The position numbers were made by a program, and so were the translations under genes. A stretch of 64,000 bases of DNA from Candidatus Omnitrophota bacterium. GTDB lineage: Bacteria; Omnitrophota; Gorgyraeia; Gygaellales; Profunditerraquicolaceae. The DNA lies in assembly GCA_963805065.1 (NCBI GenBank), contig CAWDSS010000010.1:147696-211695 (forward strand), given 5' to 3'. The notes beneath the pieces are model-generated. The model ran no database searches. It was not told where the DNA came from and worked only from the letters and a program-made list of their open reading frames with translations. Shown here piece after piece: positions 1,038 to 18,166 of this stretch; within the stretch, counting starts at the first letter, position 1, and each line of letters opens with the position of its first letter.

Positions 1038-1574
1038 TCATTCCTTTCGTTCTTTGAGAAAATTGGCTATATATTCTAATAGCTCTTTTGAATTAAAATC
1101 AGGGTATTTTCCTGAGAATATTCTATAGCGATTGACACTGCTATTTTTTACGGGAATTATATTCTGAATCGATCTTTCAAGCCGTTCCCACTGCTTGGTT
1201 TTTGCCGTCTTGTCGATTTTCAGCTTTGAGATGTCCAATATTTGAATAAATAAGACCGAATCAGCCATACCTATGCGCTCATTATTTTCCGATTCATGAA
1301 TGAAGTACTTCGACAATGCAGAAGTAAGGAATTTGCCGCAGATTTGCGTTGGCTTGATATTAGCCTCTTCAATTTCTATAATAACCTTAATCTTATTATC
1401 AACGGTTATCAAGAGATCGACATTGCAATATTCAGTTACCCGCGAACGTTCCTCAGAACAAAATAAAGGAATATGCTGGTTGCCGCCGCAAGCTGGATCT
1501 TTGATAATCTTGCAGCCCGGGAATACATCTTCGTTGATTGATTTCCCGATTAATTCATGAAAAGGATGATCCAT
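1038..1574 (-). CDS. small hypothetical protein with a PD-(D/E)XK-like motif (possible restriction-endonuclease-fold nuclease)
   Basis: 178 aa. NVDLLITVDNKIKVIIEIEEANIKP fits a D-x13-E-x-E..K core. An AAGGAG RBS precedes the ATG. Nothing else is recognisable by eye. Confidence 0.35.
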   Translation of the reverse strand: MDHPFHELIGKSINEDVFPGCKIIKDPACGGNQHIPLFCSEERSRVTEYCNVDLLITVDNKIKVIIEIEEANIKPTQICGKFLTSALSKYFIHESENNERIGMADSVLFIQILDISKLKIDKTAKTKQWERLERSIQNIIPVKNSSVNRYRIFSGKYPDFNSKELLEYIANFLKERKE

Positions 1575-1601
1575 ATCTTTTCTCCTTGGCTCCTATGAAA
1601 T

Positions 1602-1644
1602 AAAAAACCTTTGCCATCTTTCCGGGCAAAGGTTTTGCTTTTTT
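1602..1644. terminator. bidirectional intrinsic terminator hairpin
   Basis: AAAACCTTTGCC-atctttccg-GGCAAAGGTTTT, with an A-run on the left (1598-1607) and a T-run on the right (1637-1644). Confidence 0.6.
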
Positions 1645-1696
1645 AATGTCCAGGTTCCCCCTTCAACTCAGGACCCTACTTTCTAAAATCATTATT

Positions 1697-1725
1697 AATA
1701 TATACCCTTTATAAGGCTTTGTCAA
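1697..1725 (-). promoter_or_regulatory. sigma70-like promoter reading leftwards
   Basis: Minus strand TTGACA (1725-1720), 17 nt, TATATT (1702-1697). It lies immediately after the stop of ORF 1734..2738 and upstream of the 1602-1644 hairpin. Confidence 0.4.
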
Positions 1726-1733
1726 CCTTTTCC

Positions 1734-2738
1734 TTAGCGCTTTTGGGCCTTAACAAACTGGTTTAGAACCAAAGGGATGCAGTCGTTCGTAAAATATAGC
1801 TCTACTTCCTGGTAGCGGTCATGTAGATTACAAGCTTTGGCAAATTCCTTATGTGATTCCGGAAACTTCTCAGGCCCGTTGATTAAAATAAGCCTGGTCC
1901 GCCTGCGTACGTCAATCGCATGCTCCGGGAAAAACATTGCTAACCCCCTTTTATGATCCTCAACCCAATTACAGTAATCAAGCCCTTGGAAGATTACGCT
2001 CTTCAGCCGCGCATTAAGCAGTTTTACATATTTAAGCTCTATTACCGTAAGCCACTTACGCTTACGCTCAAGGGCAAGGATATCAATTACCTCAGACTTC
2101 TTTGTCCCCTCACCTGCGGGTACTTCGCAATCAAGGATATCATAGCTATAGCCTCCTAATTCCCCTCCGGCTTTAAGATACTCCACTACCGCTGCCTGAA
2201 GATCCATTACTTCGTTCTTTATTTCTACGGCCTTGGTAAGGCTGTTTTCATAATGCTCTTTTATGCTCCGAAAACGTTCCTGAAGAGACTTAAACTGTTC
2301 AACATTGATAAATTGTATCAAGCGGATGTCCGGAACCGCTATTTTAAGCAGACGGATCTTTCTTAAAAATACCTCATCGAATGAATGACCCAATATTAGA
2401 AGCGGAACGGCGCTGTTACCTGCAGATATCTTATTCCAATACTCAAACACCAAAGGCAATAACTCTGTTTGCAGAGGCGTGGGTAAATCCCTTAAGTCCG
2501 TACCGGAGCCACCATAACCTACTATCGCAGCAGGTAAGTGTTTGTTTTTGACACGGATAGAACCCTTATAAAAGGCCAGATGGTTAGAGTAATTTGGGGA
2601 TTCTACGGTAACGCCGATATTATTCTTTAAATATTCTACTATATAATTAACGAACTCATAACGCTCAAGAGCTTTAACGTCAAAACGGAACCTTTTTGAA
2701 ACCCCTGAATCAAAAGAGATATCAATTTCTTTATCCAT
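1734..2738 (-). CDS. hypothetical protein with a C-terminal NucS/Shedu-like PD-(D/E)XK nuclease domain
   Basis: 334 aa. The C-terminal part CEVP...EVIDILALERKRKWLTVIELKYVK...QGLDY fits E..D-x12-ExK..QxxxY. The N-terminal ~200 aa are unrecognised. Confidence 0.4.
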   Translation of the reverse strand: MDKEIDISFDSGVSKRFRFDVKALERYEFVNYIVEYLKNNIGVTVESPNYSNHLAFYKGSIRVKNKHLPAAIVGYGGSGTDLRDLPTPLQTELLPLVFEYWNKISAGNSAVPLLILGHSFDEVFLRKIRLLKIAVPDIRLIQFINVEQFKSLQERFRSIKEHYENSLTKAVEIKNEVMDLQAAVVEYLKAGGELGGYSYDILDCEVPAGEGTKKSEVIDILALERKRKWLTVIELKYVKLLNARLKSVIFQGLDYCNWVEDHKRGLAMFFPEHAIDVRRRTRLILINGPEKFPESHKEFAKACNLHDRYQEVELYFTNDCIPLVLNQFVKAQKR

Positions 2739-2777
2739 TTTTCCACATCATTCTCGTCTATGATTATTCCATTTTGG

Positions 2778-2805
2778 CATATTCCAATATGTAATATAAC
2801 ATATT
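2778..2805. promoter_or_regulatory. candidate operator made of overlapping CATATT/AATATG half-sites
   Basis: CATATTccAATATGtaatataACATATT lies in the 87-bp divergent region between ORFs 1734..2738 and 2826..3047. Confidence 0.3.
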
Positions 2806-2825
2806 AGTGAGGGAAGTCAAACTAT

Positions 2826-3047
2826 ATGAATAAGACTATTTATTCAGAAGGTCACAAGGTGCTGGTAAATAAGTTGATAAGGGCTCGCAAAGAAAAGGGC
2901 CTTAGGCAGGGAGATGTCGCGAAATTGCTAGGCAGGACACAATCTTATGTCTCAAAAATAGAGGCTGGCCAACGCAGAGTAGACATAATTCAATTGAAAG
3001 AATTCGCGAAAATTTACAAAAAAAATCTTGATTTCTTCGTTAAATAA
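2826..3047 (+). CDS. XRE-family helix-turn-helix regulator (controller-protein size)
   Basis: 73 aa. LRQGDVAKLLGRTQSYVSKIEAGQRRVDI is a canonical XRE/HTH_3 motif. Confidence 0.8.
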   Translation: MNKTIYSEGHKVLVNKLIRARKEKGLRQGDVAKLLGRTQSYVSKIEAGQRRVDIIQLKEFAKIYKKNLDFFVK

Positions 3048-3107
3048 TATGCGTCTTCTATCTACTACAAATAACTCACCGGAAACAACTCTCTGTAAAC
3101 AGGTTAA

Positions 3108-3146
3108 AATAAAAGCGCCGCGGTGGTAAACCGTGGCGCTTTTATC
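3108..3146. terminator. bidirectional terminator between convergent genes
   Basis: AAAAGCGCCGCGG-tggtaaa-CCGTGGCGCTTTT with flanking A and T runs. It sits between the XRE stop (3047) and the terL stop (3162). Confidence 0.6.
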
Positions 3147-3161
3147 AAAATCTACTACTGC

Positions 3162-4844
3162 CTAGTAAGAAAATCTGTTCCAGCCGTACCAACCATAAGG
3201 CACAAGACCGTCGGGCGTAGGATAAACTGGCTCAGGATCTCCCGGCAGTGGAGGATAACTCCCGCCTCCAGCTAACCCAAAACTAAATTCATTACCATTA
3301 GATAGACGTACCGCAAGCTCTAAGGCATCTAATCCGTCGTCGTGTCGGCCTTTCGGGAAATACCTGCAGTCCTCCAAAAGCTGCCGGTGCTTCTTGCTGA
3401 ATTGCAAGTTGCCACTTTTAATACGCGGCCGTAGAGACTGAATCCTTGCAATTTTATCATCTTTATTAATCACTGCTTCGAGAGGAATATAAAGCCCCAT
3501 ATCCTCTCCTTTCTTCCTGACAAGATCCACAAGGACTCGCTGAAACTGGTTACTCTCAATCCCAAATTTAACAAACTTATACCTTAGACAATAAGCTAAG
3601 ATATCCTCGATTATCTTCTCTATGGGCCGGCGCTCTATATCAGCTACTATGATATAGAGTGTCTTAGAGGTTTCGTCTTTTGCCAATACGATAATAGCCG
3701 AGAAGTCTCCCTTAACCGTGCTTAACCCAAGGCTTGGATCGCAGGCGCCGTAAAACTTTACGTTATCGCCTAATAACTTCAATAAATCATCAATAGATCG
3801 CCCGGACGCATCCCAGTATACGATATTGTCTATGTCAAAAAGACAATCCCTAAGGTTAACTGGTGTGTTCTGGAATTCCGAAAGGAAACTAAGCTCATTT
3901 TCTTGCCGTATTTCCATAAGTCTGTGCAGGCTATAGCGCTTATCCCAAAGAAGCTTAGCTCCTTCATCCATTGCCATTTTATTCTCTTGATAATATTGAT
4001 AAGCTGCCGCGGGCCCACTCGCCCCCTTAAACTCCATTTTATGGTTGTAGATGTTAGCCCAAGTATCGTCCCATAAGTCCATGCGCCTAGGCCAAGTCAC
4101 AAGAGCAGGATATACCTTCTTAATCCACGTTGGGTACTCGTCTGGACAGACATATTCGCTCAAAAGACTGTAGGGATGATAAAGGTTACCAATAAAGATA
4201 TAATTGGTAACCTCTGAGCCAACTTTAAGAACCGACTTCTCGTACCAGTCTTTCATCTTGTCGCGCGATTCTACCCCAAAGGTGTTCTCGGCGTCTTCTA
4301 AATCGTCGGCCAGAACCAATGTCGGGCGGGCGGTTCCAAATCTGCGCCCGCGGATCTGCTGACCTGAACCTAGTGCCAAGACCAAAACCTTATTTCTAGT
4401 AATTATGTCTGACTGCCTCCAGCGCAGCAGTTTGAATTTACCGCTTGATTCGAATACTTCCGGAAAATCCAGCTTTAGCAATTCATTTTCCGTTAACTCC
4501 TTTTTGATGTTATCTAGTATCTGAGCTGCCTGCGAAGCTGTATTCGAAATAATCACAATAAATTCTTCTTTCGAATAGCAGATGCTGTAAATTACGTCAA
4601 TTAAGGTAACCGTGGTGCTCTTTCCGAATTCGCGCGGCGCGGCAATGGCAATCTTTTTGCCTCTTTCGAGCGTTGCGGCATCAAGTATGCGGTATATCTC
4701 AAGATGAGCCGCTGACGGGTCAAATTCCATATGGTGTCTCATATATAGCCTTGAAAATGTAAGCAGCGACTTGCTGCCTTCCTGTCTTCTTAATCTTGAT
4801 AGTTCTCTTGCGATATTATTTTTCATCTTGTTCCTCCTTTTCAT
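3162..4844 (-). CDS. terL: phage terminase large subunit
   Basis: 560 aa. Walker A is AAPREFGKST and Walker B is LVLADDLED. The C-terminal RNaseH-like nuclease acidic residues are present (YGACDPSLG, GRHDDGLDALELA). Confidence 0.85.
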   Translation of the reverse strand: MKRRNKMKNNIARELSRLRRQEGSKSLLTFSRLYMRHHMEFDPSAAHLEIYRILDAATLERGKKIAIAAPREFGKSTTVTLIDVIYSICYSKEEFIVIISNTASQAAQILDNIKKELTENELLKLDFPEVFESSGKFKLLRWRQSDIITRNKVLVLALGSGQQIRGRRFGTARPTLVLADDLEDAENTFGVESRDKMKDWYEKSVLKVGSEVTNYIFIGNLYHPYSLLSEYVCPDEYPTWIKKVYPALVTWPRRMDLWDDTWANIYNHKMEFKGASGPAAAYQYYQENKMAMDEGAKLLWDKRYSLHRLMEIRQENELSFLSEFQNTPVNLRDCLFDIDNIVYWDASGRSIDDLLKLLGDNVKFYGACDPSLGLSTVKGDFSAIIVLAKDETSKTLYIIVADIERRPIEKIIEDILAYCLRYKFVKFGIESNQFQRVLVDLVRKKGEDMGLYIPLEAVINKDDKIARIQSLRPRIKSGNLQFSKKHRQLLEDCRYFPKGRHDDGLDALELAVRLSNGNEFSFGLAGGGSYPPLPGDPEPVYPTPDGLVPYGWYGWNRFSY

Positions 4845-5508
4845 CTTTTGGTTTATCGTCCTTCTTCGTTAGTTTGTTTACTTCCTGATTTATCTCGACT
4901 TGCTCAATCCTTACTTTTAAAGCTCTAATCTTTTTTTCGGTTTCAGGATCAAGGGTACCCGCTTCTTTTGCTGCGCGCTCAATTTCACTTAACATGCTCT
5001 TAGCCTCTGCAATATCTCTTTCGCCATCCCCATCTGCTACGTGATGGAAAATATCTTCTACGATCTCCTGTGGCTTCAGGGGGAGATACCCCAATGTTTG
5101 CATTTTTTCAACCACCTCCTTTAAAACGCGCCAGGCCAGAAACTCCGACTGAGATTTCTCTCCGTTAGTCGCATCTGGACTGCGCGCAAGACGCATTAAA
5201 TGCTTATGATGCACCATAGCCTTCTGGAACATATTTCCTATAATGCATTTGGCCTGATTAATATCAGGGCTTAAGGCGTTTCGCTTCTCTATCTCTTGTA
5301 AATCTCGCCTTACGGTCCTCTCGGTTATCATAAGGATCTGTCCGATCTGCGCCTGCGTGTACCCCTCGCTGCTAAGAAATTCTACACAACGCTGTCTTAT
5401 TTCGTTAGTTAATGTTTTAGGATTTAAAGTACCGTCTTTAATTTGTTGAATCAAAGAAAGAATCGGCTCTTCATCGTCGGGGATTTCTTTTTTATTGTTA
5501 TTGCCCAT
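4816..5508 (-). CDS. putative terminase small subunit / sigma70-region-4-like HTH DNA-binding protein
   Basis: The ORF track extends to 5595, but MGNNNKKEIP (ATG 5508) gives an 11-nt overlap with the upstream gene. The HTH is GYTQAQIGQILMITERTVRRDLQEI. Its position directly upstream of terL supports the call. The acidic/basic C-terminal tail is low complexity. Confidence 0.45.
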   Translation of the reverse strand: MGNNNKKEIPDDEEPILSLIQQIKDGTLNPKTLTNEIRQRCVEFLSSEGYTQAQIGQILMITERTVRRDLQEIEKRNALSPDINQAKCIIGNMFQKAMVHHKHLMRLARSPDATNGEKSQSEFLAWRVLKEVVEKMQTLGYLPLKPQEIVEDIFHHVADGDGERDIAEAKSMLSEIERAAKEAGTLDPETEKKIRALKVRIEQVEINQEVNKLTKKDDKPKDEKEEQDEK

Positions 5509-6781
5509 CGATGACCTCCTTGAGATATTTTTTACGTATGTCTTCTGAAACTTTATCGATGCCTTTATAGGCAATGTACCGACGGACAATCGCATCGCAG
5601 TATTTCGGGTCTATCTCTATCCCAAAACAACGACGATCAATAGACTCCGCTGCAATTAATGTTGACCCGCTGCCCAAACATAGATCCAAAACGATATCGC
5701 CGCGTTCGCTGCTGTTGCGGATAGCGCGTGCCGCGAGTTCACAAGGTTTTTGAGTCGGATGTCGGTATTGGCTCGTCGGGTCTCGTTTAACCTGCCAAAG
5801 ACTGCTTTCGTTGACACCGCCATACCAGCGATGTTTTTCACCTTCCTTCCAACCGTAGAGACAAAACTCAGTTTGTTGATGATAGTCGCCGTAGGAAATT
5901 GCGAAATTCGGTTTTGCCCAAGTCAAAACGCAACCGATATGATAATTAAGATCGGTCAATAGTCGATGCATCGGTGCAAATTGGCAATGACCGTTCCAAA
6001 TATAGAATGAACATCCCGGCTCAAGCACTTTGTCAATATTGGCAAACAGCTTTTTAAGAAACTCTTCGTATTCCTCCTGGCTCAAGTTGTCCGCATAAAT
6101 TCTTTCCCAGTTACGCGAACGTTTAGGGCGAGCGGACTTGGGTCGCGGCCTGTCTCCGCCGAGATATGCGATATTGTAAGGCGGATCCATATTTACGAGC
6201 CTCGCCATTTCATTCCCCATAAGCAGCATTACGTCATCTAATATGGTAGAATCGCCGCAGAGAATACGATGGTTGCCGAGAGTAATAATGTCTCCGCGTT
6301 TGGTTTTCGGCTCTGAGATACTTTCAAGAGCGGATTGGAAATCATAATCATCTCCGTCCTTCTGTTCTCCGTAGCGGTCGAAAATCTGGCCAATCTCTGC
6401 AACATTAAAGCCCGTAACGGTTACGTCAAACTCTGGTATTTTTGATAACTCATCCAAAAGCGCAGCAAGTTTTTCTTTATCCCAACCTCCACCAACTTTG
6501 TTCAAAGCAAGATTAGCTGCTTTCTCTTTCTCCAAAGAGAAATCCACCACAAAAGCTTCGATATGAGTTATCCCTTTGGCCTTAAACACTTTTATCCGCT
6601 GCTCTCCGGAAATCACTTGATGTGTTTTTATATTAACCACGGGCAACCCCAGCAGTCCGAACTCATCAATGCTTCGTTCAATATTCTTGTATTCAGGGTC
6701 ACCCGGTTTTAAGTCAACCCGCGGGTTATAAGGTGAAAATTGATAATCATTGAGACAAATTGTCTGAATTGTGGGTTTCAT
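5498..6781 (-). CDS. ParB-like nuclease domain fused to an N4/N6 DNA methyltransferase
   Basis: 427 aa. The N-terminal part is ParB/Srx-like (YNPRVDL...ISGEQRIKV). The C-terminal MTase motifs are NMDPPYN (IV), HPTQKP and DLCLGSGST (I). A GAGGAGG RBS precedes the ATG. Confidence 0.85.
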   Translation of the reverse strand: MKPTIQTICLNDYQFSPYNPRVDLKPGDPEYKNIERSIDEFGLLGLPVVNIKTHQVISGEQRIKVFKAKGITHIEAFVVDFSLEKEKAANLALNKVGGGWDKEKLAALLDELSKIPEFDVTVTGFNVAEIGQIFDRYGEQKDGDDYDFQSALESISEPKTKRGDIITLGNHRILCGDSTILDDVMLLMGNEMARLVNMDPPYNIAYLGGDRPRPKSARPKRSRNWERIYADNLSQEEYEEFLKKLFANIDKVLEPGCSFYIWNGHCQFAPMHRLLTDLNYHIGCVLTWAKPNFAISYGDYHQQTEFCLYGWKEGEKHRWYGGVNESSLWQVKRDPTSQYRHPTQKPCELAARAIRNSSERGDIVLDLCLGSGSTLIAAESIDRRCFGIEIDPKYCDAIVRRYIAYKGIDKVSEDIRKKYLKEVIDGQ

Positions 6782-6872
6782 CTGTTACCTCCTCTGTTTG
6801 TATTTATGTTGAGTTGATAGTAAAAAACAACCTGTTACCACCTCCTTTCCCGGCTCTGCAGGCCCTAAAAAC

Positions 6873-6937
6873 CAAAAAAAACGCGATCATCTGCAAGCTT
6901 GTGTTTTCACATCACAGTATTTGCAGATAATCGCGTT
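6873..6937 (-). terminator. strong intrinsic terminator (minus strand)
   Basis: Minus strand AACGCGATTATCTGCAA-loop-TTGCAGATGATCGCGTT followed by T8 (plus-strand A-run 6874-6881). Confidence 0.65.
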
Positions 6938-7045
6938 TATGAATTGCGACTAAAGCCTTATGGGTCTTTTGGTCTATCTCTAACGAAAATCCCTTCCGGC
7001 TTTATGAATTTCTATTATGTCTAAAGAGCAATTGTTTCAGAAATT

Positions 7046-7073
7046 ACTATACACTATTTTCTTAATTTGTCAA
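7046..7073 (-). promoter_or_regulatory. sigma70-like promoter (minus strand)
   Basis: Minus strand TTGACA (7073-7068), 16 nt, TATAGT (7051-7046). It lies 29 nt after the stop of ORF 7102..7767 and ~110 nt upstream of the 6873-6937 terminator. Confidence 0.4.
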
Positions 7074-7101
7074 GATATGTTAAGGTAACAGTATTTTTTG
7101 A

Positions 7102-7767
7102 TTACTGGTGGGAGCCTTGTGTGAATTGACAATAAAGGCAGTCTTGTTTATAGGATGGAATTGAGCCATCATATGTCTTTTTTGCATTTACGAGGGCTTG
7201 CTCTATCCAAGAGCCATCCCCTTCTTGCGGTTCAAGGAAGAAATCAAAGGAAAGTTTACCTTCCACAAAACCACCATTCTTATTTACCTTAGTAAACAGG
7301 AAATACCCAGTCTTGGAAACTTTATATCCATTCTGAATAAGTAGCCACTGGTAAACTTCCATCTGACGCTTGTATTGTGGGTATATTTGGTATTGATTGG
7401 CTCCGGTAGCTTTATAATCTACTACGATTAACTCGCCTGCTGGATTAATCCATACATCATCCACAGCCCCAAAGACAAGAAAGTCTGTAGCCTTATGGTG
7501 AAATTGGATACCCGTAAAGTTATGTCGCCAAGTATCGATTTCCTTACATTTATAGGGAATGACGTTAATGTTATGTTTCTTGATAATGTAATGGGCTGTG
7601 CCGTTTTCGCGGCAGACGTCGAATTCCTGCTTCAGTAGGCCATCGATAGCAGAGTTAATCGTATATGGTGCTGGTGGTGGACGTTTAACGCCTTTCTTCA
7701 TGTCCAGCCAAAAGCAGCGTGGACAATCTAAGAATAACTCGAGTTTTGAACGAGAAAACTTGATCAT
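7102..7767 (-). CDS. Cas4/RecB-family PD-(D/E)XK nuclease with terminal cysteine pairs
   Basis: 221 aa. Motifs are GAVDDVW (D), VVDYKAT (DxK) and QMEVYQWL (QxxxY). Cys pairs sit at both ends (CPRCFW near the N-terminus, CLYCQF near the C-terminus), like the Fe-S staple of Cas4/AddB. Its ATG overlaps the RT stop (ATGA). Confidence 0.75.
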   Translation of the reverse strand: MIKFSRSKLELFLDCPRCFWLDMKKGVKRPPPAPYTINSAIDGLLKQEFDVCRENGTAHYIIKKHNINVIPYKCKEIDTWRHNFTGIQFHHKATDFLVFGAVDDVWINPAGELIVVDYKATGANQYQIYPQYKRQMEVYQWLLIQNGYKVSKTGYFLFTKVNKNGGFVEGKLSFDFFLEPQEGDGSWIEQALVNAKKTYDGSIPSYKQDCLYCQFTQGSHQ

Positions 7768-9581
7768 AATTGTAAGTTTTTAATTCTTTTAATGTGCTCT
7801 TTAATAATTGTGTGTCGGCTATATTTATCTTCAATCCTCTTCAGCAAAGAATTAAGCGATTTCCTTACGTTCCGATCATTATTCAAAGCTACAAACCAAA
7901 GACGCCAGATTTGATCTCCAATAAAAACCGAATCCAGTCCATGGAATTTCTTAATCTGATTAGTTGCATAATTTTTGTCATTAATAACGCACAGAAGAAA
8001 ATTTGCCATTCTTGAAACCGTTACGTTAAGATCTTGCGCAATCTCTCCTAGCATTTTTTTTGTTTTTTCAGGAGTATAAGATAACGGCAATAGCACAAGG
8101 GCGGCTCTTCGTATGTACCGGTGATTATTTTCATTCAGCAAATTTCTGACCTTACCTTCTGCAATTCCTTCATAAGATAGATAAAATAATGTGCCGATTG
8201 CTTGTACCCTTACATACCAATGTCGTTTGGATTTAAAAATTACAGAAAACATATTACGTAAAACTTGCTTGTTTCTTACTTTTAAATTGCGAAAAACAGC
8301 TACTAAATGTGCGGCCTGTAAATTATATAAAAATTTATGCCTGTGAAGATAAAACTCCATAGTTCTTAAAACTGGGGCAGTATTGATAAATGATCTAGAA
8401 TAACTACAAATTGCTCTAGACCTTATTGGGAATCTAATGAAATCACTTTTAAGACGATTTTTTAATAATGGAGTTTGAAGCACTCTCGCAGCGTTATAAG
8501 TCATAAATAACGCGGTTTCTAATTTCTTATCGAATTTCTTTCTTCTATATATTCTTTTGTATTCTTGCCGCAACTTAGATAATTGGGCTTTCCTATTAAC
8601 TCTTGAATTCTTAGAAGCTTCAATGATCTGTTTAATGTTTTCTGCTATTTCGTTATAGATTTCACTGCGCGCCTCTAAAGCAGTAAGAATCTTAGTTTTC
8701 TCAGCGTTCTGATTTAATCCGAGTTCTCGGAGCTTACCGCCCAATCTTAAAATAATTGCTATCGCACGTAATCTGGAAGAACTCAATATATGGATATCAT
8801 CACAGTACCTATACCACTCAATTTTTCCTTTTCTTCTCTCCTTCTCTAAGTAAGAATCTACTATATCTAAGTAATAGTTGCTTAAAATTCCAGAGACATT
8901 AGAGGAACCTTGTGGCAACCCACGATCCTGCCTTACATTGCAAGGATCTCTTAATGACCAACTTCTAAATATTTCTAGTATCATATTGATACCGCTTAAT
9001 TGCTTACCTGCTTTGAGCTTTAATATTTCACCTAGAGTTGAAAGATTAATATCTTCAAAATATGCAGTTATATCGGTCTTGGCTACATATTTATATTTCC
9101 CGCTGTCCAATCCGGTTATGATTTTTTGTATATACTCAGGCCATAAATTATACCAAGGTTCCTCAATTTTTATTTTTTCTCTTTTGTATCTAGGCAATAC
9201 AAAATAACTATGCTCTCTATCGCAAGTATACTGCAATTTTTTATCTTTTTTAAGTCGGTAAGCAGTTACCCCAGGATAAAGCCTTCTATCCAATTTAATA
9301 ATAAAATCTAGTAATAAGCGGTGAATGACCGTGAGGTCTAATATATCTACAATAATCCCTGGCCTAATCGCATATTCACCCTTAGGTAAATCAAAATTCT
9401 CCACTCTTTTTGGTCTATACTCTTTAGACTTGAGATCAGCGATGAGTTCATTTATTGTTTCTTTTAATTTATAGTCATAATCACAATATTTAAATGGATC
9501 TGGGGCAACGCTACGCTCCAAATCAGACACTGCTCTTTGAAAAGCTGCGTACATGTTTTTGTAATCAGATAACCGTGACAT
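7764..9581 (-). CDS. reverse transcriptase with a C-terminal alpha-helical repeat domain (UG/Abi-type, defence-associated architecture)
   Basis: 605 aa. RT motifs are LPKGEYAIRPG (1/2), KTDITAYFEDI (A), RGLPQGSSNVSGILSNYYL (B), YRYCDDIHIL (C) and NAEKTKIL (E). The C-terminal ~250 aa are helical and HEAT-like (HWYVRVQAIGTLFYL, HRYIRRAALVLLPL). There is no maturase X or En domain. Confidence 0.85.
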   Translation of the reverse strand: MSRLSDYKNMYAAFQRAVSDLERSVAPDPFKYCDYDYKLKETINELIADLKSKEYRPKRVENFDLPKGEYAIRPGIIVDILDLTVIHRLLLDFIIKLDRRLYPGVTAYRLKKDKKLQYTCDREHSYFVLPRYKREKIKIEEPWYNLWPEYIQKIITGLDSGKYKYVAKTDITAYFEDINLSTLGEILKLKAGKQLSGINMILEIFRSWSLRDPCNVRQDRGLPQGSSNVSGILSNYYLDIVDSYLEKERRKGKIEWYRYCDDIHILSSSRLRAIAIILRLGGKLRELGLNQNAEKTKILTALEARSEIYNEIAENIKQIIEASKNSRVNRKAQLSKLRQEYKRIYRRKKFDKKLETALFMTYNAARVLQTPLLKNRLKSDFIRFPIRSRAICSYSRSFINTAPVLRTMEFYLHRHKFLYNLQAAHLVAVFRNLKVRNKQVLRNMFSVIFKSKRHWYVRVQAIGTLFYLSYEGIAEGKVRNLLNENNHRYIRRAALVLLPLSYTPEKTKKMLGEIAQDLNVTVSRMANFLLCVINDKNYATNQIKKFHGLDSVFIGDQIWRLWFVALNNDRNVRKSLNSLLKRIEDKYSRHTIIKEHIKRIKNLQL

Positions 9582-9685
9582 AGTTATATCTTCAATAAAT
9601 GAATATTATCCTCAATCCACTTTCTTGCTTGTAGATCGGATGCCACATACATCGTAATGTAATTTTATTCCCAAACAAATATTTT

Positions 9686-10951
9686 CTAACGCAACACTAT
9701 CTTTTGCGTTTTAGCGTCATACTTATAGTTAACAATTCCTCCCGTCAAAATAAGCTCGACTGTTTTTTCAATAACTTCAATAGGAGCTATAAACCATTCG
9801 CGAGGACAATATTCAATACCCGCACTATCTACAATCTTTATATCTAAGCATGACTTCCCGAAGAATTTATGAAGCATGGATTCCATAAGGTTTGGCTTGA
9901 AGTTATAGCATTCATAATACGATACTATATGCACTGGCGCATTAAGGTATGTGTGGTCTTTTGCGGAGTTTTTTACACGTTTTTCAACCGAAGTAGATGA
10001 GAAACCTATCTTGTATAAATTTGCTATGGAGCTAATTTGCGGATTAGTACTTTTAGATTGTATTATATAAATAAACCCGGTCGAGGAGTCGTTTTTATCT
10101 ACATCATGGAGATTTTTTGACTTTTTAGGCTGATAATTCGTTATTCTCTTACCCTGCTTGTTTTTATATAACTCGGCGCTCAAAGATCTAAGAAGCATAT
10201 CCGACTCTAATCCATTTTCAAATATACATTTTAATCTTGCATTCACCTTTCCCTTGGTGGTTTTCCGCTCGCCCTTTTCTGCAACATATAGCATTATTCC
10301 TTTCAAAACATAAAAGCATCCTTTTTCTATTTGTTGTTCTTTTTCAAACTGCTTTAACTGTCTCGTTCCTTCTTGCAAGTTTTTGTGACATTCAATAAAT
10401 AAATGCTCAAATTCGTAAAAATTATCGCATTTCTTTCTCTGCGCCAAATAATCGGGCATATTTGTTTCCTTGGGCACATGCTTAATATTCAATATCTCTT
10501 CCCCACCTTTTTCGAGAATTCCTAAATCATCGCTTTTGAAAACATCATCTATTGTTCTATTAGTTTTGCCTTTATTGTTTTCACCCGAAAGATTCGAAGC
10601 GACATCTGATTTATTAGTTAGTCTCTTATTCTGCAATAGCCCATTTCTATCAAATTTAACTAATTCTTCTATCTTTTCGGGGTTTTGTCTAATGCCTTTT
10701 AGTCGAAAATATAATTTAGCTTCCTGGATATTGTCTTGCCCTGGTTCTCTATGGTGCGCTTCCACAAACTTTTGTATTTCGCCGAATGATTCAATTAATC
10801 TCTGCTTTTCAGATTTAACGGATGATGCCTTAGGTCTGACATTCAATAAACCCATTGCATCATCTTCGAATATCTTGCGGAGTTGTTCGTTCTTATCCAT
10901 TAGCGACCATTTTCCGTTTTTCATTACGTAAATATATAAGCGCCTCTGCAA
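9686..10951 (-). CDS. T5orf172/MUG113 (GIY-YIG-superfamily) domain protein
   Basis: 421 aa. The C-terminal part GFIYIIQSKS...LYKIGFSSTSVEKRVKN...ESMLHKFF...REWFIAPIEVI matches the T5orf172 pattern. The likely true start is 10924 or 10900; the latter gives an ATGGATAA-type 8-nt overlap with the helicase stop. Confidence 0.65.
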   Translation of the reverse strand: MQRRLYIYVMKNGKWSLMDKNEQLRKIFEDDAMGLLNVRPKASSVKSEKQRLIESFGEIQKFVEAHHREPGQDNIQEAKLYFRLKGIRQNPEKIEELVKFDRNGLLQNKRLTNKSDVASNLSGENNKGKTNRTIDDVFKSDDLGILEKGGEEILNIKHVPKETNMPDYLAQRKKCDNFYEFEHLFIECHKNLQEGTRQLKQFEKEQQIEKGCFYVLKGIMLYVAEKGERKTTKGKVNARLKCIFENGLESDMLLRSLSAELYKNKQGKRITNYQPKKSKNLHDVDKNDSSTGFIYIIQSKSTNPQISSIANLYKIGFSSTSVEKRVKNSAKDHTYLNAPVHIVSYYECYNFKPNLMESMLHKFFGKSCLDIKIVDSAGIEYCPREWFIAPIEVIEKTVELILTGGIVNYKYDAKTQKIVLR

Positions 10952-12818
10952 GTCTTTTCTCTAAAGGATCGGAAGAATTCATGTGGGGCTCGCTACTAGT
11001 ATTATTTACAAACGCTTTTATTTTGGGCCACAATATAATTGCTTCATCTAAAGTCATTTGCATTCTATTAAGCTCGATTGTTTCTTGTATAACTTTGAAT
11101 ATTTGTGGCGTTACAGATTTGGAAAGAATTTCAAATGCTTGCTGAAAAGGATTTATACTATCAATTAAATCTATATTTAGCTTGTCTATATCGACAAATT
11201 CTCCGGCCATCTTAATAAATCGCTGGCCTCCAATTTCTTTGATTTCCGATCGTTTAACTACAGAATCAGAAACAAGATGCTGCCTAACGACCTCGACCTC
11301 TTCCGTTGATAAATCGGGGTATTTCCTTTGGATTATTTTTGGAGTTAGCATTTTATTGATAACTTCTGGATCCATGATACCAGAAAGCGCCCTCACCAGA
11401 TCTTCGTCCTGCAAAAGACTGGCTTTAAGGTCATTTATATCTGATTCGAGAATTTCTTTTACCTTTGCCGTTGTGGGCTCTTTTAGCCCTTCAATCTTTA
11501 TTACGCCGGGCTCAGATTTATCACTTGCATTTTTTTTAGTTTTGAACTTAAAATTTGGCGCTATAACTTGTTCCATTAACAAAGAACAGGTTATGGCTTT
11601 TAACATATTATTTACAGAAATTCTTACGACATCATCGCTAGCATCTGGTTGGGCAATAAGATTTGTAAATTGTGTATGTGTTTTGTTATAACTATCTCTT
11701 GTGCATCGGCCGATTATTTGAATAATTTCCGTTAACGACCCTCTGTATCCCACGGTTAAAGCATGTTCGCAATAAGGCCAATCAAAGCCTTCTTTTGCCA
11801 TACCCAAAGCAATGATCAAATCCATATCATCTACATCTTTAATCTTTCGTAAATAATTGACAATTTTATCTCGTTCTTTCTGTTCATCATAAACAAGGTC
11901 TGCAATCTTAATAATTTTATTATCTTTTTTACGTTTTACGAATATAACTCCTGTGTGTTTATCTTGATGAATAACATCGCCTATTGTATCTAGTATCGTA
12001 TCTACTTCTTTATGCTTATCTTTTGTCGATTCTCCAGCATTAACATTGGGAATATGTATAATGGTCTTCTTATTCGTATCAAGAATCTCGCCAATAGCGG
12101 ACGTATATCTACCTTGATAGAAATGATACCCGATGCCTAAAGATTTTAAATAAGTATATCCGTTCAGCTGTTCATAGTAATTATAGGTTACTTTGGTAAA
12201 TTTACATTCGTCTTCTGGCAATAAAATAGGAATGCAATCACCTCTAAAATATGATCCTGTCATGGCTACAATATGTGCCTTTGATTTTCTAAGAACTTCC
12301 CTAAGCAATTCTCCTAATTGACTACTGATATCTGCCGAAACATGATGAAATTCATCTATCGCAATCAATGTCTTATCAAAATCTCCCTCGGCCAATCCCT
12401 CAAAAGCAAAACGTAAAGTCGCATGGGTACATATCAATATTTTATCGGAACCTTTCATAAAACGGTGGAACGCTTTAACTTTACCCGGTTCACCACCAGG
12501 CGTACAAAGATTGTCTTTAGGTTTTGGGTCCCAGTCAGCAAAAAAGCCAGTTGATTTCAAATTAGTGTTTTCAAATGAAGCGCCGATTGATCGCTCCGGA
12601 ACCGCAACAATTACTTTCTTAAGACCTTGATTGGCTAGTTTATCTAAACCAATAAACATCAGCGCCCTAGACTTACCTGATGCTGGCGGAGCCTTAATAA
12701 TCAAATACTGGGAATTGCGTGCTTTAAAAGCGCGCTCCTGCATTTCTCTCATGCCGTATTTGTTAGTTTTGGTACTCTTTCCACTTCTTTCGTATTCAGC
12801 TCTTACTATGTCTGGCAT
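10893..12818 (-). CDS. SF2 DEAD/DEAH-type (ResIII-like) helicase
   Basis: 641 aa. Motifs are I KAPPASGKSRA, Ia VAVPERSIG, II AIDEFHHV, III MTGSYFRGD and VI QIIGRCTRD. No nuclease motif is visible. Its start overlaps the upstream MTase by 23 nt. Confidence 0.85.
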   Translation of the reverse strand: MPDIVRAEYERSGKSTKTNKYGMREMQERAFKARNSQYLIIKAPPASGKSRALMFIGLDKLANQGLKKVIVAVPERSIGASFENTNLKSTGFFADWDPKPKDNLCTPGGEPGKVKAFHRFMKGSDKILICTHATLRFAFEGLAEGDFDKTLIAIDEFHHVSADISSQLGELLREVLRKSKAHIVAMTGSYFRGDCIPILLPEDECKFTKVTYNYYEQLNGYTYLKSLGIGYHFYQGRYTSAIGEILDTNKKTIIHIPNVNAGESTKDKHKEVDTILDTIGDVIHQDKHTGVIFVKRKKDNKIIKIADLVYDEQKERDKIVNYLRKIKDVDDMDLIIALGMAKEGFDWPYCEHALTVGYRGSLTEIIQIIGRCTRDSYNKTHTQFTNLIAQPDASDDVVRISVNNMLKAITCSLLMEQVIAPNFKFKTKKNASDKSEPGVIKIEGLKEPTTAKVKEILESDINDLKASLLQDEDLVRALSGIMDPEVINKMLTPKIIQRKYPDLSTEEVEVVRQHLVSDSVVKRSEIKEIGGQRFIKMAGEFVDIDKLNIDLIDSINPFQQAFEILSKSVTPQIFKVIQETIELNRMQMTLDEAIILWPKIKAFVNNTSSEPHMNSSDPLEKRLAEALIYLRNEKRKMVANG

Positions 12819-15474
12819 GTTGGCTCCGTTTTAAATTCTCCATTTCTTCATATAACATAAACAAGTGTTGTAAACGATCATTATCTGATTCAAACGGTTT
12901 ATCTTGATATAACGAGTCTATTTCTAAATCAAGTTTGCGATGAGCCACCGAAAGACTTTGCGGCATTTTGAATGGATCATAAAGTTGAGCCATGGTTTTC
13001 TCAGAGTGTAACTGTCTTTGTTCAACTATTTTAAAAACAAGCCTTTCGATGCACTCTTTTTTCTCCTTAGAAATATCAGGCATGGGGAAGGTGTTATATC
13101 CTAAAGCCGATGAATAACGAATGCGCGTTTCAAGACTTCCGCATACAGCGCGGATCCAAATCATATGCATCTTAGAGGCAATGATTCCAAATAACCAGGT
13201 TTCCGCTTCGTAAATAGCAAAAGCTAAGTTAGTTATAATTGTAGAGCTATCTACAAAACCTACTGGCAAATATTCTCTTCGCTCTGAAGAAACGGAAGGT
13301 ATAATCAAGGACTGATATTTCGTAATATTCGTCTCCCTAAATTGATGTGGCCTTTTTGCTAAATCGTGCGCGGCGCTATCACTACTACTTAGTCGCATTT
13401 TTTTGACAGAATCAACTCGTAACTTAATAGGATTTATTGCAAGAGCGTCTTTCTGATCTTGATCCAATATCCACAAACACCATCTTTCGATATCATTAAT
13501 GAACTCATCGGATCCCATAAGTCTCTTAATAAACTTAGCTGCGGAAGGATATTGTTCTAAAAGAACGTTTTTCTCTTCTGTGGTTAATATTAAATTCCCC
13601 CCGTCATATGGCATGTTACCTTTTGGCATTAAAGGTAGATTTGATATTGGGGTTGATCTCTTATGGACAATAATGTTGCTTGTAGCGGTTAGGTATGGGC
13701 TTATATTATTTACTTGGTGCGCCAATCCATTAATATAAAGTTTTTTTGTACGCTTCTCTCCGGTTTTCTGCATTCCAATAATAATCACAGTAACTCCAGT
13801 ATTTTCAGTTGCATTGCTTGCCCACTTAAATGAAGTATACGCAAAGCTTATTTCTACTTTTTGTTTTAATAAAATGGGCCAAAGTAACCCAACTTGTTCA
13901 CCTTGACAAATTGAATTTGTTGAACCAAAGGCAAATTTAGAAATAGTCGATTTAATATAACGACTACCAAGATAGAACCAGCAAGCTGCGTAGTCTAAGT
14001 TTTTAGTATTTTCAAATCCGTTAAAAACAAACGCTACGTCGGATTTTTGTTCTTTTGATTGTTTGCGAGCGCCCTTATATGGTGGGTTTCCTACCACATA
14101 GACTTCGTCATTTTCTTTTTTAGGGCATATTTTACTCCAATCTAAGCGCGTTGCATTCCCGCTTACTATATTGGCAGTTTCTTTGATTGGGATATGTTTA
14201 ACCAAACCTTCGAACTCGTTCAAATATTCGACATCCATTTGATATTCAGCTAGCCATAACGACAACATTACCATTTCAAACGCGAGAGGGTCTTGTTCAA
14301 TACCATAGAATTGTGAAAGCCTTATCTGAGAAGAATGTGGTTTTTTAAACTTCCCCAGTTCCACTAATTTTCTGATTATTTTAATTTCGAGTTTACGTAA
14401 TTCTTTATAGGCAACTATCAAAAAATTTCCAGACCCACATGCCGGATCAAACACTTTTATTTTTATTATTCGACCAAGCAAAGAAATCAAACGTCTCTGA
14501 CTCCCTTTAGATCTATTTAATTCGTCATAAAGGCCATCTAAAAATAATGGTTTAATCATCTTTAATATATTTTTAACGTTCGTATAGTATATTCCTATAT
14601 AGCCCCTGTTTTTTGAAGAGACAGCAATTTGAATCATTGAGCCGAAAATATCCGGATTTATGGTTGCCCAATTCATCTGACCGATTTCAATTATTATTTG
14701 CCTCGCTTTTCTAGAAAGAAGAGGGGTTATTTTTGATTTCTCGAATAAGCCTCCATTAACATATGGAAATTTTCTTAAATATTCTGGGCAGCCTTTTCTT
14801 TCTTTTTTATTTAAAACATTGAATACTTTTTCGAGATAGGAATTAAGGTCGTTGCCATCCTGTTGCGTATGCGAAATGACAGAATTAACAAATAAACCTT
14901 TATTATATAATCCGACATCTTCGGCGAAAAAACAAAAAAGAAGTCGTGACAAAAAAATATTAAGATTATGCTGCTGGTCAAAGGTATTTAAGGTATTAGT
15001 TTTTCTTAACTCATCGACTAGCCTAGAAATACATTCCGTAGCTCGAACATCCACTGGACTCTCATCTTTATAGGTTGCTTTTTCAAATCCAGCTAGCGGT
15101 AAGAAAAAATCGCAATATGCTCCTAAATTTTTAATATCGATCTCTAATATGTCATTGTTTTTCGTATCGGCTGCCAAGAGCTTTTTAAAGTTAGTTATGA
15201 TAATAAATCTCGGCTTATATTTAGCGCATATACAATTCTTTTGTACCTCAGACATAGCTTGATGGATATCTTTTCCATATATAGACTTAAAAAATAATTT
15301 CTTTTTCAGAACAACCTCTCCGGAATTTTTTGAAATATTAGAACCTCCATCCTGCAATCTTACAATAGAAGCTTTTGGGTAACCATAAGCCGATAGTAAG
15401 TCATAAATAAAAGATTTCTCGGAGATAGTCTTTGTAATATTTAAAAGGTTGTCTTCGATTTGATTTATATTCAT
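12796..15474 (-). CDS. MmeI-family (type IIL/IIG-like) N6-adenine DNA methyltransferase with no recognisable nuclease catalytic triad
   Basis: 892 aa. Family-typical blocks are LLFCFFAED, FPYVNGGLFE, INPDIFGSMIQ, YYTNVKNILKMIKPLFLD, FDPACGSGNFL (motif I), GNPPYKG (motif IV), STNSICQGEQVGLLWP, RWCLWI, LETRIRYSSALGYNTFP and LYDPFKMP. The N-terminal region has ..VVLKKKLFFKS.. where a D...ExK would be expected. Confidence 0.85.
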   Translation of the reverse strand: MNINQIEDNLLNITKTISEKSFIYDLLSAYGYPKASIVRLQDGGSNISKNSGEVVLKKKLFFKSIYGKDIHQAMSEVQKNCICAKYKPRFIIITNFKKLLAADTKNNDILEIDIKNLGAYCDFFLPLAGFEKATYKDESPVDVRATECISRLVDELRKTNTLNTFDQQHNLNIFLSRLLFCFFAEDVGLYNKGLFVNSVISHTQQDGNDLNSYLEKVFNVLNKKERKGCPEYLRKFPYVNGGLFEKSKITPLLSRKARQIIIEIGQMNWATINPDIFGSMIQIAVSSKNRGYIGIYYTNVKNILKMIKPLFLDGLYDELNRSKGSQRRLISLLGRIIKIKVFDPACGSGNFLIVAYKELRKLEIKIIRKLVELGKFKKPHSSQIRLSQFYGIEQDPLAFEMVMLSLWLAEYQMDVEYLNEFEGLVKHIPIKETANIVSGNATRLDWSKICPKKENDEVYVVGNPPYKGARKQSKEQKSDVAFVFNGFENTKNLDYAACWFYLGSRYIKSTISKFAFGSTNSICQGEQVGLLWPILLKQKVEISFAYTSFKWASNATENTGVTVIIIGMQKTGEKRTKKLYINGLAHQVNNISPYLTATSNIIVHKRSTPISNLPLMPKGNMPYDGGNLILTTEEKNVLLEQYPSAAKFIKRLMGSDEFINDIERWCLWILDQDQKDALAINPIKLRVDSVKKMRLSSSDSAAHDLAKRPHQFRETNITKYQSLIIPSVSSERREYLPVGFVDSSTIITNLAFAIYEAETWLFGIIASKMHMIWIRAVCGSLETRIRYSSALGYNTFPMPDISKEKKECIERLVFKIVEQRQLHSEKTMAQLYDPFKMPQSLSVAHRKLDLEIDSLYQDKPFESDNDRLQHLFMLYEEMENLKRSQHARHSKS

Positions 15475-15504
15475 TGTGCTCGCTTAATCGACCCCCGGGT
15501 CATA

Positions 15505-16416
15505 TTAAAGGCGCTTTAATTTCTTTTGATATTCGCGTATAGTTTTTGCAACATATTCGGCTAATTTAACAGGTACGGCATTGCCAATTATCTGTTCTAA
15601 AGAAGTTTTTGTTCCTTTGAATTTGAATAAAGCTGGAAAGGTTTGAATATGTCCTCTCTCAATCGTTGTTAGCGCCCTTACCTTTGAAGAAATAGCTACT
15701 ACGTCTCCCGGATGTTTTTTGTAAGCTTTCGGAATCGGCCGATTCACGCCACGTATTGTAGCGCTTGGCTCATGAATACTAAAAACGGCTCTTCTTTTAT
15801 AGCTTCTTGGATGCACATAATAGTACTCTGTTCCTAATAAATCTCCTAGATAATCATGAATGGTCATTTGTCTATCTGATTTATTTTTGTCGAGATACTG
15901 TTTTAGAAATTGATCTTTTGAGCCCAGGTGCCCAATCATAAAAAAACGCCTCCGCGCCTGAGGAACGCCGCAATAACTTGCGTCGAGTATATCCGTAGTC
16001 AAGCCATATCCAACGCTTTTTAATATCTGAGATGCTTTTTTTAGAACCTTACTTTTATCTATGGTATAAACGTTTTCCATCACAAACCATTCGGGCTTAG
16101 AGATAGCTACAATTTTAGCAAATGCTATCGTTAGATTCGCCCTACCTGACCTTTCATTTCGTTTTCCTGCAATAGAGAAGTCCTGACATGGCGGGCCACC
16201 GATTATAATATTAGGTTTCAACGAACACACGAATTCTATACTTTTATCTTTGCTCAGGTCTAAATTGTAAATAGGATGATTAAAGTTATTCTTATAAACG
16301 TCAATAGCAGGACCCCAGTTATCGAATGCAGCCAATATTTTAAACCCGGCATTTTGAAAACCTAGTGACATGCCACCGCAACCAGAAAACAAATCAACTG
16401 TACTTAAGTTCTGCAT
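15505..16416 (-). CDS. DNA (cytosine-5)-methyltransferase, copy 1
   Basis: 303 aa. Motifs are I DLFSGCGGMSLGF, IV GGPPCQDFS, VI ENV, VIII QARRRFF and X GNAVPV. Confidence 0.9.
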   Translation of the reverse strand: MQNLSTVDLFSGCGGMSLGFQNAGFKILAAFDNWGPAIDVYKNNFNHPIYNLDLSKDKSIEFVCSLKPNIIIGGPPCQDFSIAGKRNERSGRANLTIAFAKIVAISKPEWFVMENVYTIDKSKVLKKASQILKSVGYGLTTDILDASYCGVPQARRRFFMIGHLGSKDQFLKQYLDKNKSDRQMTIHDYLGDLLGTEYYYVHPRSYKRRAVFSIHEPSATIRGVNRPIPKAYKKHPGDVVAISSKVRALTTIERGHIQTFPALFKFKGTKTSLEQIIGNAVPVKLAEYVAKTIREYQKKLKRL

Positions 16417-16421
16417 TTTCG

Positions 16422-17351: not shown

Positions 17352-17385
17352 AACCGTATCCTTTCTTTTCGGCTTTGAGAATATT

Positions 17386-17844
17386 TTAGATTAAGCGAGC
17401 TTTTGTTATCTTGTTATACATATTTTCAACCTTAATAGCACAATTTTTGGAATTTTTGATCATCTCGAAATCCCAAAACCGAATTATTTTCCACCCTTCT
17501 CTCTTTAATGACATATTCACCTGCTTATCTCTTTCAATATTTTTCTTTATTTTATTAACCCAATAATGCTTCCTTCTTTTAAAAGAATGAATTTTAGTAG
17601 ACATGTTTTTATAACCATGCCAGAAAGATGAATCGCAAAAAACTGCTAATTTATGTTTCGACCAAGAGAAATCTGGTGTTCCAAGTATATTTTTTTTGTT
17701 TTTCCTATAGCCACGTAACCCAACTTTACATAATGCGGATGCCATTAATCTTTCTATTTCAGTACCCGATGACTTTATCCGCGACATAGTATACGAGACC
17801 ACTTCTCTAGGTCTTTGCCCTTTATTAACAGTTGTATTTTTCAT
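17386..17844 (-). CDS. vsr: very short patch repair endonuclease
   Basis: 152 aa. MSRIKSSGTEIERL...LGTPDFSW..HKLAVFCDSSFWHGY matches the Vsr pattern. It is adjacent to the C5 methylases. Confidence 0.85.
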   Translation of the reverse strand: MKNTTVNKGQRPREVVSYTMSRIKSSGTEIERLMASALCKVGLRGYRKNKKNILGTPDFSWSKHKLAVFCDSSFWHGYKNMSTKIHSFKRRKHYWVNKIKKNIERDKQVNMSLKREGWKIIRFWDFEMIKNSKNCAIKVENMYNKITKARLI

Positions 17845-18092: not shown

Positions 18093-18166
18093 TAAAAAAA
18101 TACCTCTCTTATTACCTTGCTATATGGCGATTTATATGCCTATATTGTACTGAGGAAACCAGAGTT

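Follow-up and report, generated by a model that had tools for sequence, protein, structure and literature searches.

A 64,000-nucleotide stretch of the genome of a Candidatus Omnitrophota bacterium (NCBI GenBank assembly GCA_963805065.1, contig CAWDSS010000010.1, positions 147,696 to 211,695; the whole of this stretch is hereafter referred to as the window) encodes a reverse transcriptase (RT) of 605 amino acids (aa) at positions 7764-9581 and, immediately downstream, a Cas4-like PD-(D/E)XK nuclease of 221 aa at positions 7102-7767, both on the minus strand. The two genes had been proposed, in a reading of the bare sequence (hereafter the sequence-only reading), to form a new and dedicated two-gene defence system. 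The comparative analysis described here argues, with a probability of roughly three in four, that the two genes are functionally independent, the RT being a stand-alone defence-type cargo gene and the nuclease a backbone gene of an integrative element, situated at the edge of a defence hotspot. The evidence comes from the gene neighbourhoods of the two families, from the positions at which homology between related elements breaks off and from the composition of the genes on either side of these breakpoints.

Gene neighbourhoods of the reverse transcriptase and the nuclease

A set of 34 RT loci was initially obtained from GTDB genomes and JGI metagenomes, to which three further entries (L039, L040/L041 and L042; homologous loci are designated here by L numbers) were added by exact-protein look-ups. 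The scan of the GTDB-genome contigs gave two RT loci, and the evidence is derived mainly from contigs of metagenomes, many of them short. The nuclease is found beside the RT in one of the 34 loci fetched first (L003, with an RT 77% identical to that of the window) and also in L039 (RT 89% identical), and is absent from L040/L041 and L042, the RTs of which are about 60% identical. The two genes adjoin one another only in the window, L039 and L003, which have the same element backbone and RTs that are 77-89% identical, and about 20 independent RT lineages have neither the nuclease nor any common partner gene. Clustering of the neighbours of the RT loci revealed no recurrent gene beyond same-strain duplicates, and searches with Pfam and PADLOC of 90 neighbours from 20 non-redundant RT loci revealed no family that occurs more than twice. 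The genes directly downstream of the other RTs are unrelated (GH97, integrase, DUF72, FRG-like, PEP-CTERM, DinB-like, radical SAM and HATPase), and the RTs of about 60% identity are flanked either by a HEPN and a radical-SAM gene or by HATPase and DUF4325. Conservation of the pair in other genomes, by which the sequence-only reading had proposed that its claim be judged, is not observed across the RT loci.

Some of the RT loci have features of their own. In L040 (4225-6582; also in L041), on a contig labelled Helarchaeota, the end of a gene for a HEPN protein of 159 aa (Pfam 1.7e-11) lies 34 nucleotides (nt) upstream of the 60%-identical UG21-like RT, an arrangement that recalls the reported association of UG22 and UG19 with HEPN partners and is not seen in the other loci. 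An open reading frame (ORF) of about 160 aa upstream of the RT was considered as a recurrent HEPN partner and rejected, the others being AbiGi-like, a fragment of a Schlafen-helicase, a weak LAGLIDADG match or without any match. The L011 locus (1215-11483), in which a SNF2 helicase and a Type ISP-like enzyme precede the RT, represents a second, independent adjacency of an RT followed by a nuclease, and in L001 a classic Cas4-like gene is located 3.4 kb from the RT on the opposite strand. A PDDEXK_1-positive neighbour among the RT loci was ruled out as a member of the same nuclease family as that of the window by hmmsearch, hhalign and blastp.

Of the 14 distinct contexts in which the gene upstream of the nuclease was compared, three have this RT in that position, one has a type VI retron, seven have some other defence gene and three have a housekeeping gene. 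The retron, which is complete and was recognised by the RT_VI (7.8e-73) and HTH_VI (1.9e-20) models, is present in L047 (6807-8678), L048 and L049; a gap of 2 nt separates it from a nuclease with 84% identity to that of the window. The other defence genes comprise a HerA-like gene (L051), PDC-S06 with Eco57I and PLD-SNF2 (L035), a Type I restriction-modification (RM) system (L050), Gabija (L046), an Eco57I RM system (L044), PHP-SMC (L043) and DUF6680 with MmeI and PLD-SNF2 (L070). In the three housekeeping contexts (L037, L071 and L072) the nuclease is 71-75% identical; the family thus occurs both at the edges of defence hotspots and in plain housekeeping neighbourhoods. It is also a very large family, with more than 6,687 clusters at 90% identity, compared with the rare RT family, which has 44 clusters in a collection of 5.8 billion proteins. 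As a side observation, ThiF/E1-like and YukD (ubiquitin-like) genes lie upstream of the L047 retron, and a ThiF gene is likewise present near the UG21-like RT of L042.

Homology breakpoints, composition and the stop/start overlap

The blastn homology of the window to loci that are free of the RT stops at 7767-7769, which is the start codon of the nuclease, and its homology to L039 and L003 stops at 9588 and 9582, respectively, which is the start codon of the RT. These breakpoints indicate that the RT is a single-ORF cassette and that the nuclease belongs with the genes downstream of it. The G+C content at third codon positions (GC3) is 29.2% in the RT versus 41.4% in the nuclease, a 12-point step that falls exactly at the junction of the two genes. 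Values of 29-35% extend across the RT, T5orf172, helicase, MmeI, two Dcm and Vsr genes (7764-17844), and the remainder of the window, including the nuclease, the ParB-methyltransferase, the TerS-like protein, the large terminase, DUF2924 and the recombinase, has values of 41-49%. The two genes are also discordant in their similarity to related loci: the nuclease of the window shares 80-82% identity with copies that adjoin a retron, an RM system and a HerA-like gene and only 76-77% with those next to the related RTs, which are themselves 89% and 77% identical to the RT of the window. Composition, breakpoints and similarity patterns place the RT in the imported cargo and the nuclease in the backbone of the element.

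The overlap of the RT stop and the nuclease start, on which translational coupling had been proposed, was read directly at positions 7764-7767 (minus strand), where the plus strand has tcat and the coding strand ATGA, containing both the TGA of the RT and the ATG of the nuclease. The start codon of the nuclease is considered correct because its N-terminus, MIKLSRSKLELFLDCPRCFWL, is kept from residue 1 among the homologues. An overlap of exactly 4 nt is present at 8 of the 55 same-strand junctions in the window and an overlap of any length at 23 of 55, and the ATGA overlap is therefore not discriminating.

Possible links between the two genes

Several observations weigh against the independence of the RT and the nuclease. 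In each of the three elements that carry both genes, the stop codon of the RT overlaps the start codon of the nuclease (ATGA in the window and L039, TAATG in L003), and L039 keeps the two together despite the insertion of a large Mokosh-like helicase between the nuclease and the methyltransferase. Two RT classes, UG21 and retron VI, fill the slot directly upstream of the same nuclease. In L011 the gene for an unrelated Cas4-like/DUF2779 fusion of 492 aa, with a DFET exonuclease-like motif, lies 76 nt downstream of the RT (51% identical), and a possible YraN-like protein, with a weak match (E 0.018), is located downstream of the RT in L013. An interplay between RT and nuclease is also conceivable by analogy with DRT4, the single-stranded DNA (ssDNA) product of which is held in check by a host exonuclease (PMC12783706). 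These points are equally expected in compact defence islands rich in PD-(D/E)XK genes, and they concern three unrelated nuclease families in two to three of about 17 lineages.

One explanation that makes use of them is that given in the sequence-only reading, namely a dedicated defence system in which the nuclease processes the DNA made by the RT or acts as an effector licensed by it. In addition to the shared overlaps, the joint retention in L039 and the different Cas4-like gene that follows the RT of L011, it can draw on two precedents: the association of the Cas4-family protein ACE1, an accessory of prokaryotic Argonaute (pAgo), with that enzyme (PMC12094033), and a UG7/DRT8 variant (cluster 17) paired with a PD-(D/E)XK protein, which is the sole published precedent for such a pairing among UG/Abi systems (Mestre et al. 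2022, PMC9226505). In UG7, according to the same source, the partner is a single homologous cluster found in a subclade congruent with the phylogeny, with 150 of 385 members. The window resembles that variant in the class of its RT and in the PD-(D/E)XK fold of the protein encoded after it. It differs in that only three closely related elements show the adjacency, which about 20 independent lineages lack, in that its nuclease, from a family more than 100-fold larger than that of the RT, is found mostly elsewhere (11 of the 14 contexts are without this RT), and in that the RT scores 81 bits with the Drt8 model versus 259 bits with that of UG21, so that it is not a UG7 enzyme. The nuclease has no match to any of the DRT-associated models of PADLOC, the discordant similarities, the break at its ATG and the GC3 step run counter to a common origin of the pair, and 4-nt overlaps are common in the window. 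A dedicated RT-nuclease system is hence regarded as improbable.

A real yet non-specific link would exist if the nuclease were a general downstream effector or accessory for whatever defence gene happens to lie upstream of it. In 11 of the 14 contexts the gene directly upstream is of the defence type, on the same strand and at a spacing of 0-96 nt, two of these being unrelated RT systems, and solo-Cas4 and MGE-Cas4 enzymes (those of mobile genetic elements, MGEs) have been reported to act in immunity (PMC12094033). Such a role is very unlikely in view of the three plain housekeeping contexts, in which the nuclease is well conserved, and of the several upstream systems that are known to be self-sufficient (retron VI, Gabija, Type I and IIG RM). 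The synteny on the other side of the nuclease, with the ParB-methyltransferase, TerS and large terminase genes, follows the pattern of a core gene that flanks a hotspot, and the distant phage homologues of the nuclease reside in replication and recombination modules.

The occurrence of both a UG21 RT and a type VI retron upstream of the nuclease would also be accommodated if it were a plug-in partner of DNA-synthesising defence enzymes, trimming or degrading the RT-made ssDNA as an antidote or a processor; this, too, is considered very unlikely. If true, it would represent a new RT-nuclease module that arose by exaptation of a backbone gene of the element, analogous to the exonuclease that restrains the DRT4 product. 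A single system composed of the RT and the upstream T5orf172 protein, DEAD helicase and MmeI-type enzyme, with the nuclease irrelevant to it, is the least credible explanation, as none of these genes is beside the RT in L039, L003 or any other RT locus and the sequence shared with the closest RT loci extends no further than the start codon of the RT, even though the genes share strand and low GC3, are tightly packed, with the helicase overlapping both of its neighbours, and leave 104 nt between T5orf172 and the RT.

Classification and structure of the reverse transcriptase

The RT contains all the motifs described in the sequence-only reading, and these fall on invariant columns of the family. 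The fingers/palm core (aa 159-300; 8682-9107, minus strand), matched by Pfam RVT_1 at 9.9e-14, includes motif A, KTDITAYFEDI (aa 168-178; 9048-9080), GLPQG (aa 221-225), YCDD (aa 259-262; 8796-8807) and NAEKTKIL (aa 292-299), the codons of motif A and YCDD having been read directly on the minus strand. In an alignment of 34 homologues D170 of motif A, D261, D262, K295 and T296 are invariant, as are the tyrosines Y108 and Y144 upstream of the palm; Y32 and Y35 are nearly so.

The best PADLOC model is RT_UG21 (1.7e-77, 259 bits, profile positions 3-489 of 503), followed by UG19 (1.6e-52, 177 bits) and then UG13a and UG23, and the Drt8, AbiP2, retron and CRISPR RT models are far weaker. UG21 ranks first for all ten RT homologues examined (30-77% identity; 220-403 bits). 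The clade of the window scores 220-272 bits with UG21, against 403 bits for the homologue P0041, and is therefore a divergent branch of UG21. The sequence-only reading had not recognised the pairing as one of the characterised DRT or retron types; the RT itself falls into a catalogued group, UG21 of Mestre et al. 2022, the main text of which names neither a partner gene nor a fused enzymatic domain for it, implying a stand-alone RT-alphaRep protein (PMC9226505).

A model of the RT generated with AlphaFold from the 34 homologues (pLDDT 89.9, pTM 0.89) consists of the RT core and an unbroken helical repeat domain (aa 301-604) with 19 consecutive helices, pLDDT being mostly above 90. The helical nature of the C-terminus, as noted in the sequence-only reading, is thus upheld; its length is about 300 aa and not the 250 aa given there, the HEAT-like alpha-repeat region (aa 301-605) corresponding to positions 7767-8681 of the minus strand. 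The PF13646 HEAT_2 family is detected on the distant relatives P0033, P0037 and P0039. The top full-length matches of the model in the PDB, by Foldseek, are DRT6 (9wy8), DRT4 (9vdo), AbiK (7z0z/7r06), UG15 (9l9s), AbiA (8oz7) and Abi-P2 (7r08), with E-values of 7e-12 to 1e-9 over 560-680 aligned columns. Taken together, the profile ranking and the predicted fold support the placement of the RT among the Class 1 UG/Abi-type enzymes that end in an alpha-repeat domain, as a divergent member of UG21, in agreement with the type of antiphage RT proposed at the outset.

The window RT shares with UG21, described as a Class 1 UG/Abi group with a C-terminus like HEAT repeats by Mestre et al. 2022 (PMC9226505), the combination of an RT core and a HEAT-like alpha-repeat region, and differs from it in its divergent position and in being about 100 aa longer than the profile. 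With AbiK, Abi-P2, AbiA, DRT4 (UG15) and DRT6 (UG12), which are single-protein systems without a non-coding RNA (ncRNA), it shares the fold over its full length, at a sequence identity of just 11-15% and TM-scores of 0.4-0.56. The HEPN domain of the AbiA-large type is absent from it.

The possibility of a group II intron RT or maturase was rejected, since TIGR04416 scores 91.5, well short of its threshold of 300, in a match limited to the RT core, and that of a retron likewise, the retron RT models reaching 35 versus a cut-off of 235. No maturase or endonuclease domain was found in the protein. An Rfam scan of positions 1-22000 detected no intron, retron or other family except tRNAs, which bears out the earlier remark that no such RNA flanks the gene. 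The flanks leave little room: 104 nt separate the upstream T5orf172 gene from the RT, the nuclease gene overlaps it downstream, and the sequence common to the window and L039/L003 ends 1-7 nt upstream of the RT ATG. Because this shared homology stops within 7 nt of the ATG and nothing in Rfam matches, a conserved structured ncRNA associated with the RT, which would be a feature of Class 2, appears to be absent, although a novel, unconserved RNA could still accompany it.

Features of the Cas4-like nuclease

The nuclease is matched over its full length by Pfam PDDEXK_1 (4.7e-11). Its motifs, all of them invariant in the family, comprise CPRC (C15/C18; 7714-7725), GAVDD (D103/D104), VVDYK (D117 and K119), QMEVYQW (Q135 and Y139) and CLYC (C210/C213; 7129-7140), the catalytic D103...D117-x-K119 being encoded at positions 7411-7461, all on the minus strand. 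Even phage homologues at 21-31% identity retain the signature CPRCF...GAxDD...DYK...QxxxY...CxxC without change. The AlphaFold model of the nuclease is unreliable (pLDDT 52.7) because it was built from 24 homologues that are 69-85% identical, and a comparison of a diverse nuclease profile with the sequences of the PDB was used instead, which retrieved ACE1 (9iab, 8e-5), Cas4 (4r5q, 2e-4; 4ic1, 2e-3) and the nuclease domains of AdnAB. The motifs and profile matches support a nuclease of the Cas4/RecB superfamily with a putative metal site of four cysteines.

The earlier description as RecB/Cas4-like thus holds at the level of the superfamily and does not extend to a bona fide Cas4. The TIGR00372 score is 28.7 bits versus a cut-off of 65, the PADLOC Cas4 models reach 2.7e-7 at best, and, as had been noted, no CRISPR-like array is present in the 64 kb of the window; cas genes were found neither among the annotated neighbours, for which the first 22 kb were searched, nor in the homologous loci examined. 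The protein resembles the Cas4 family, including solo-Cas4, MGE-Cas4 and ACE1, and the AddB/AdnAB nuclease domains in its PD-(D/E)XK core, D...D-x-K and QxxxY motifs and four terminal cysteines, and its gene is located on a mobile element and not within a CRISPR locus. It differs in the arrangement of the cysteines, which is 2+2 (C15-x2-C18...C210-x2-C213) and not the 1+3 pattern of Cas4, ACE and AddB, with one N-terminal and three C-terminal residues (PMC12094033), which in Cas4 hold an Fe4S4 cluster.

The top 120 nuclease clusters are 69-85% identical and belong mostly to metagenome-assembled genomes (MAGs) of Omnitrophota, which makes the nuclease more conserved than the adjacent terminase (45-54%). 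In phage genomes its distant homologues belong to replication and recombination modules, where their neighbours encode exonuclease, DNA polymerase, helicase, UvsX/RecT and ParB-like proteins; this setting suggests that the nuclease processes DNA ends in one or other of these pathways.

The integrative element and its defence cargo

The region of the window from about 3.1 to 20.3 kb constitutes an integrative, terminase-bearing element of about 17 kb, bounded by a serine recombinase with DUF2924 and adjoining a tRNA gene. The nuclease is the first backbone gene, followed on the minus strand by a ParB_N-N6/N4 methyltransferase (5498-6781), a helix-turn-helix (HTH)/TerS-like protein (4816-5595), which in homologous elements is about 230-260 aa long, and the large terminase, TerL (3162-4844), as identified with Pfam and PHROGs (phrog_498, 4.9e-117, and phrog_38, 5.3e-92, over 3162-6781). 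The HTH/TerS-like ORF as called overlaps the methyltransferase gene by 98 nt, and its true start probably lies further downstream. The DUF2924 protein and the large serine recombinase (Resolvase, Recombinase and Zn_ribbon_recom in Pfam) form the integration module at the other end (18080-20220, plus strand), beyond which the Rfam scan places the tRNA gene (20533-20606, minus strand). The backbone order is kept, with different cargo, in L035, L039, L050, L051 and L070, and the pair of DUF2924 and recombinase also in L050. Flanking genes in the window share 85-91% identity with counterparts in MAGs of Omnitrophota. Neither capsid nor portal genes can be seen in the element, which may be satellite-like.

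Between the recombinase and the nuclease lies a variable slot that holds the defence cargo, from 7764 to 17844 in the window, and none of the cargo genes from 9686 to 17844 is common to L039 or L003. Upstream of the RT, all on the minus strand and identified with Pfam, the cargo comprises a T5orf172/MUG113 protein (9686-10951), a DEAD/ResIII helicase (10893-12818), an MmeI-family RM enzyme (12796-15474), two C5 methylases (Dcm) of 303 and 309 aa (15505-16416 and 16422-17351) and Vsr (17386-17844). The MmeI and helicase genes overlap by 23 nt and the helicase and T5orf172 genes by 59 nt, and the three products could constitute one multi-gene unit; the helicase has weak matches to PbeA and Cas3, and the T5orf172 protein to PDC-S57. 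In the distal part of the cargo (15505-17844) the tandem C5 methylases are followed by the Vsr endonuclease, which is fused to a DUF559/MTES_1575-like region, and no cognate restriction enzyme is evident there.

Prophages and satellites, P2 and P4 among them, are known to carry defence hotspots flanked by conserved core genes. The present element resembles them in having a fixed backbone gene with interchangeable defence cargo upstream of it, sharp breakpoints and a distinct composition of the cargo, and differs from them in its Omnitrophota host and in its backbone of serine recombinase with DUF2924, Cas4-like nuclease, ParB-methyltransferase and TerS/TerL, in which capsid genes are not visible. 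A literature search found no published description of this Omnitrophota element family.

A near-consensus promoter of the sigma-70 type (TTGACA, 16-nt spacer, TATAGT; 11 of 12 positions) is located at 7046-7073 on the minus strand, just past the nuclease stop and facing the ParB-methyltransferase gene, in a scan for promoters and terminators that as a whole gave nothing above shuffled expectation. It suggests that the backbone genes downstream of the nuclease have a promoter of their own.

Probable functions of the two genes

Under the preferred reading of two independent genes, the RT would arrive as a single-ORF cassette within the low-GC defence cargo of a serine-recombinase element. The activity that it may have can be anticipated from its structural relatives. 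The conserved tyrosines upstream of the palm of the window RT could prime synthesis in the manner of Tyr44 of AbiK and Tyr125 of DRT4. DRT4 consists of one gene, the product of which synthesises random ssDNA with Tyr125 as primer (PMC12783706), AbiK and Abi-P2 carry out protein-primed, template-independent synthesis (PMC9508834), and Class 1 DRTs are described as catalysing untemplated synthesis in the abstract of a further report (PMC13174585). By analogy, the RT probably oligomerises through its alpha-repeat domain and would make untemplated ssDNA primed from its own conserved tyrosine; a phage factor would stabilise or trigger the ssDNA product, and its accumulation on infection would lead to abortive infection. 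For UG21 as a group, the prediction of a defence role is graded 'inconclusive' by Mestre et al. 2022 (PMC9226505). The nuclease, which would mark the fixed edge of a hotspot that receives different defence systems in different elements, most likely acts independently of the RT in the processing of DNA ends for the element or the cell, be it in recombination, replication or packaging.

Conclusions

The comparison removes a false lead, in that the RT and the nuclease are not supported as a new defence system, and it illustrates that a 4-nt overlap combined with an attractive domain chemistry does not amount to evidence of a functional pair in compact genomes. The presence of a UG21-branch RT within clearly defensive cargo (RM systems, Vsr and a helicase) on a mobile element lends circumstantial support to a role of UG21 in defence, for which the RT is a compact and tractable single-gene candidate. 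The element itself belongs to a family of integrative elements in the Omnitrophota, with a defence hotspot bounded by an abundant and conserved Cas4-like nuclease that carries an unusual CxxC...CxxC signature.

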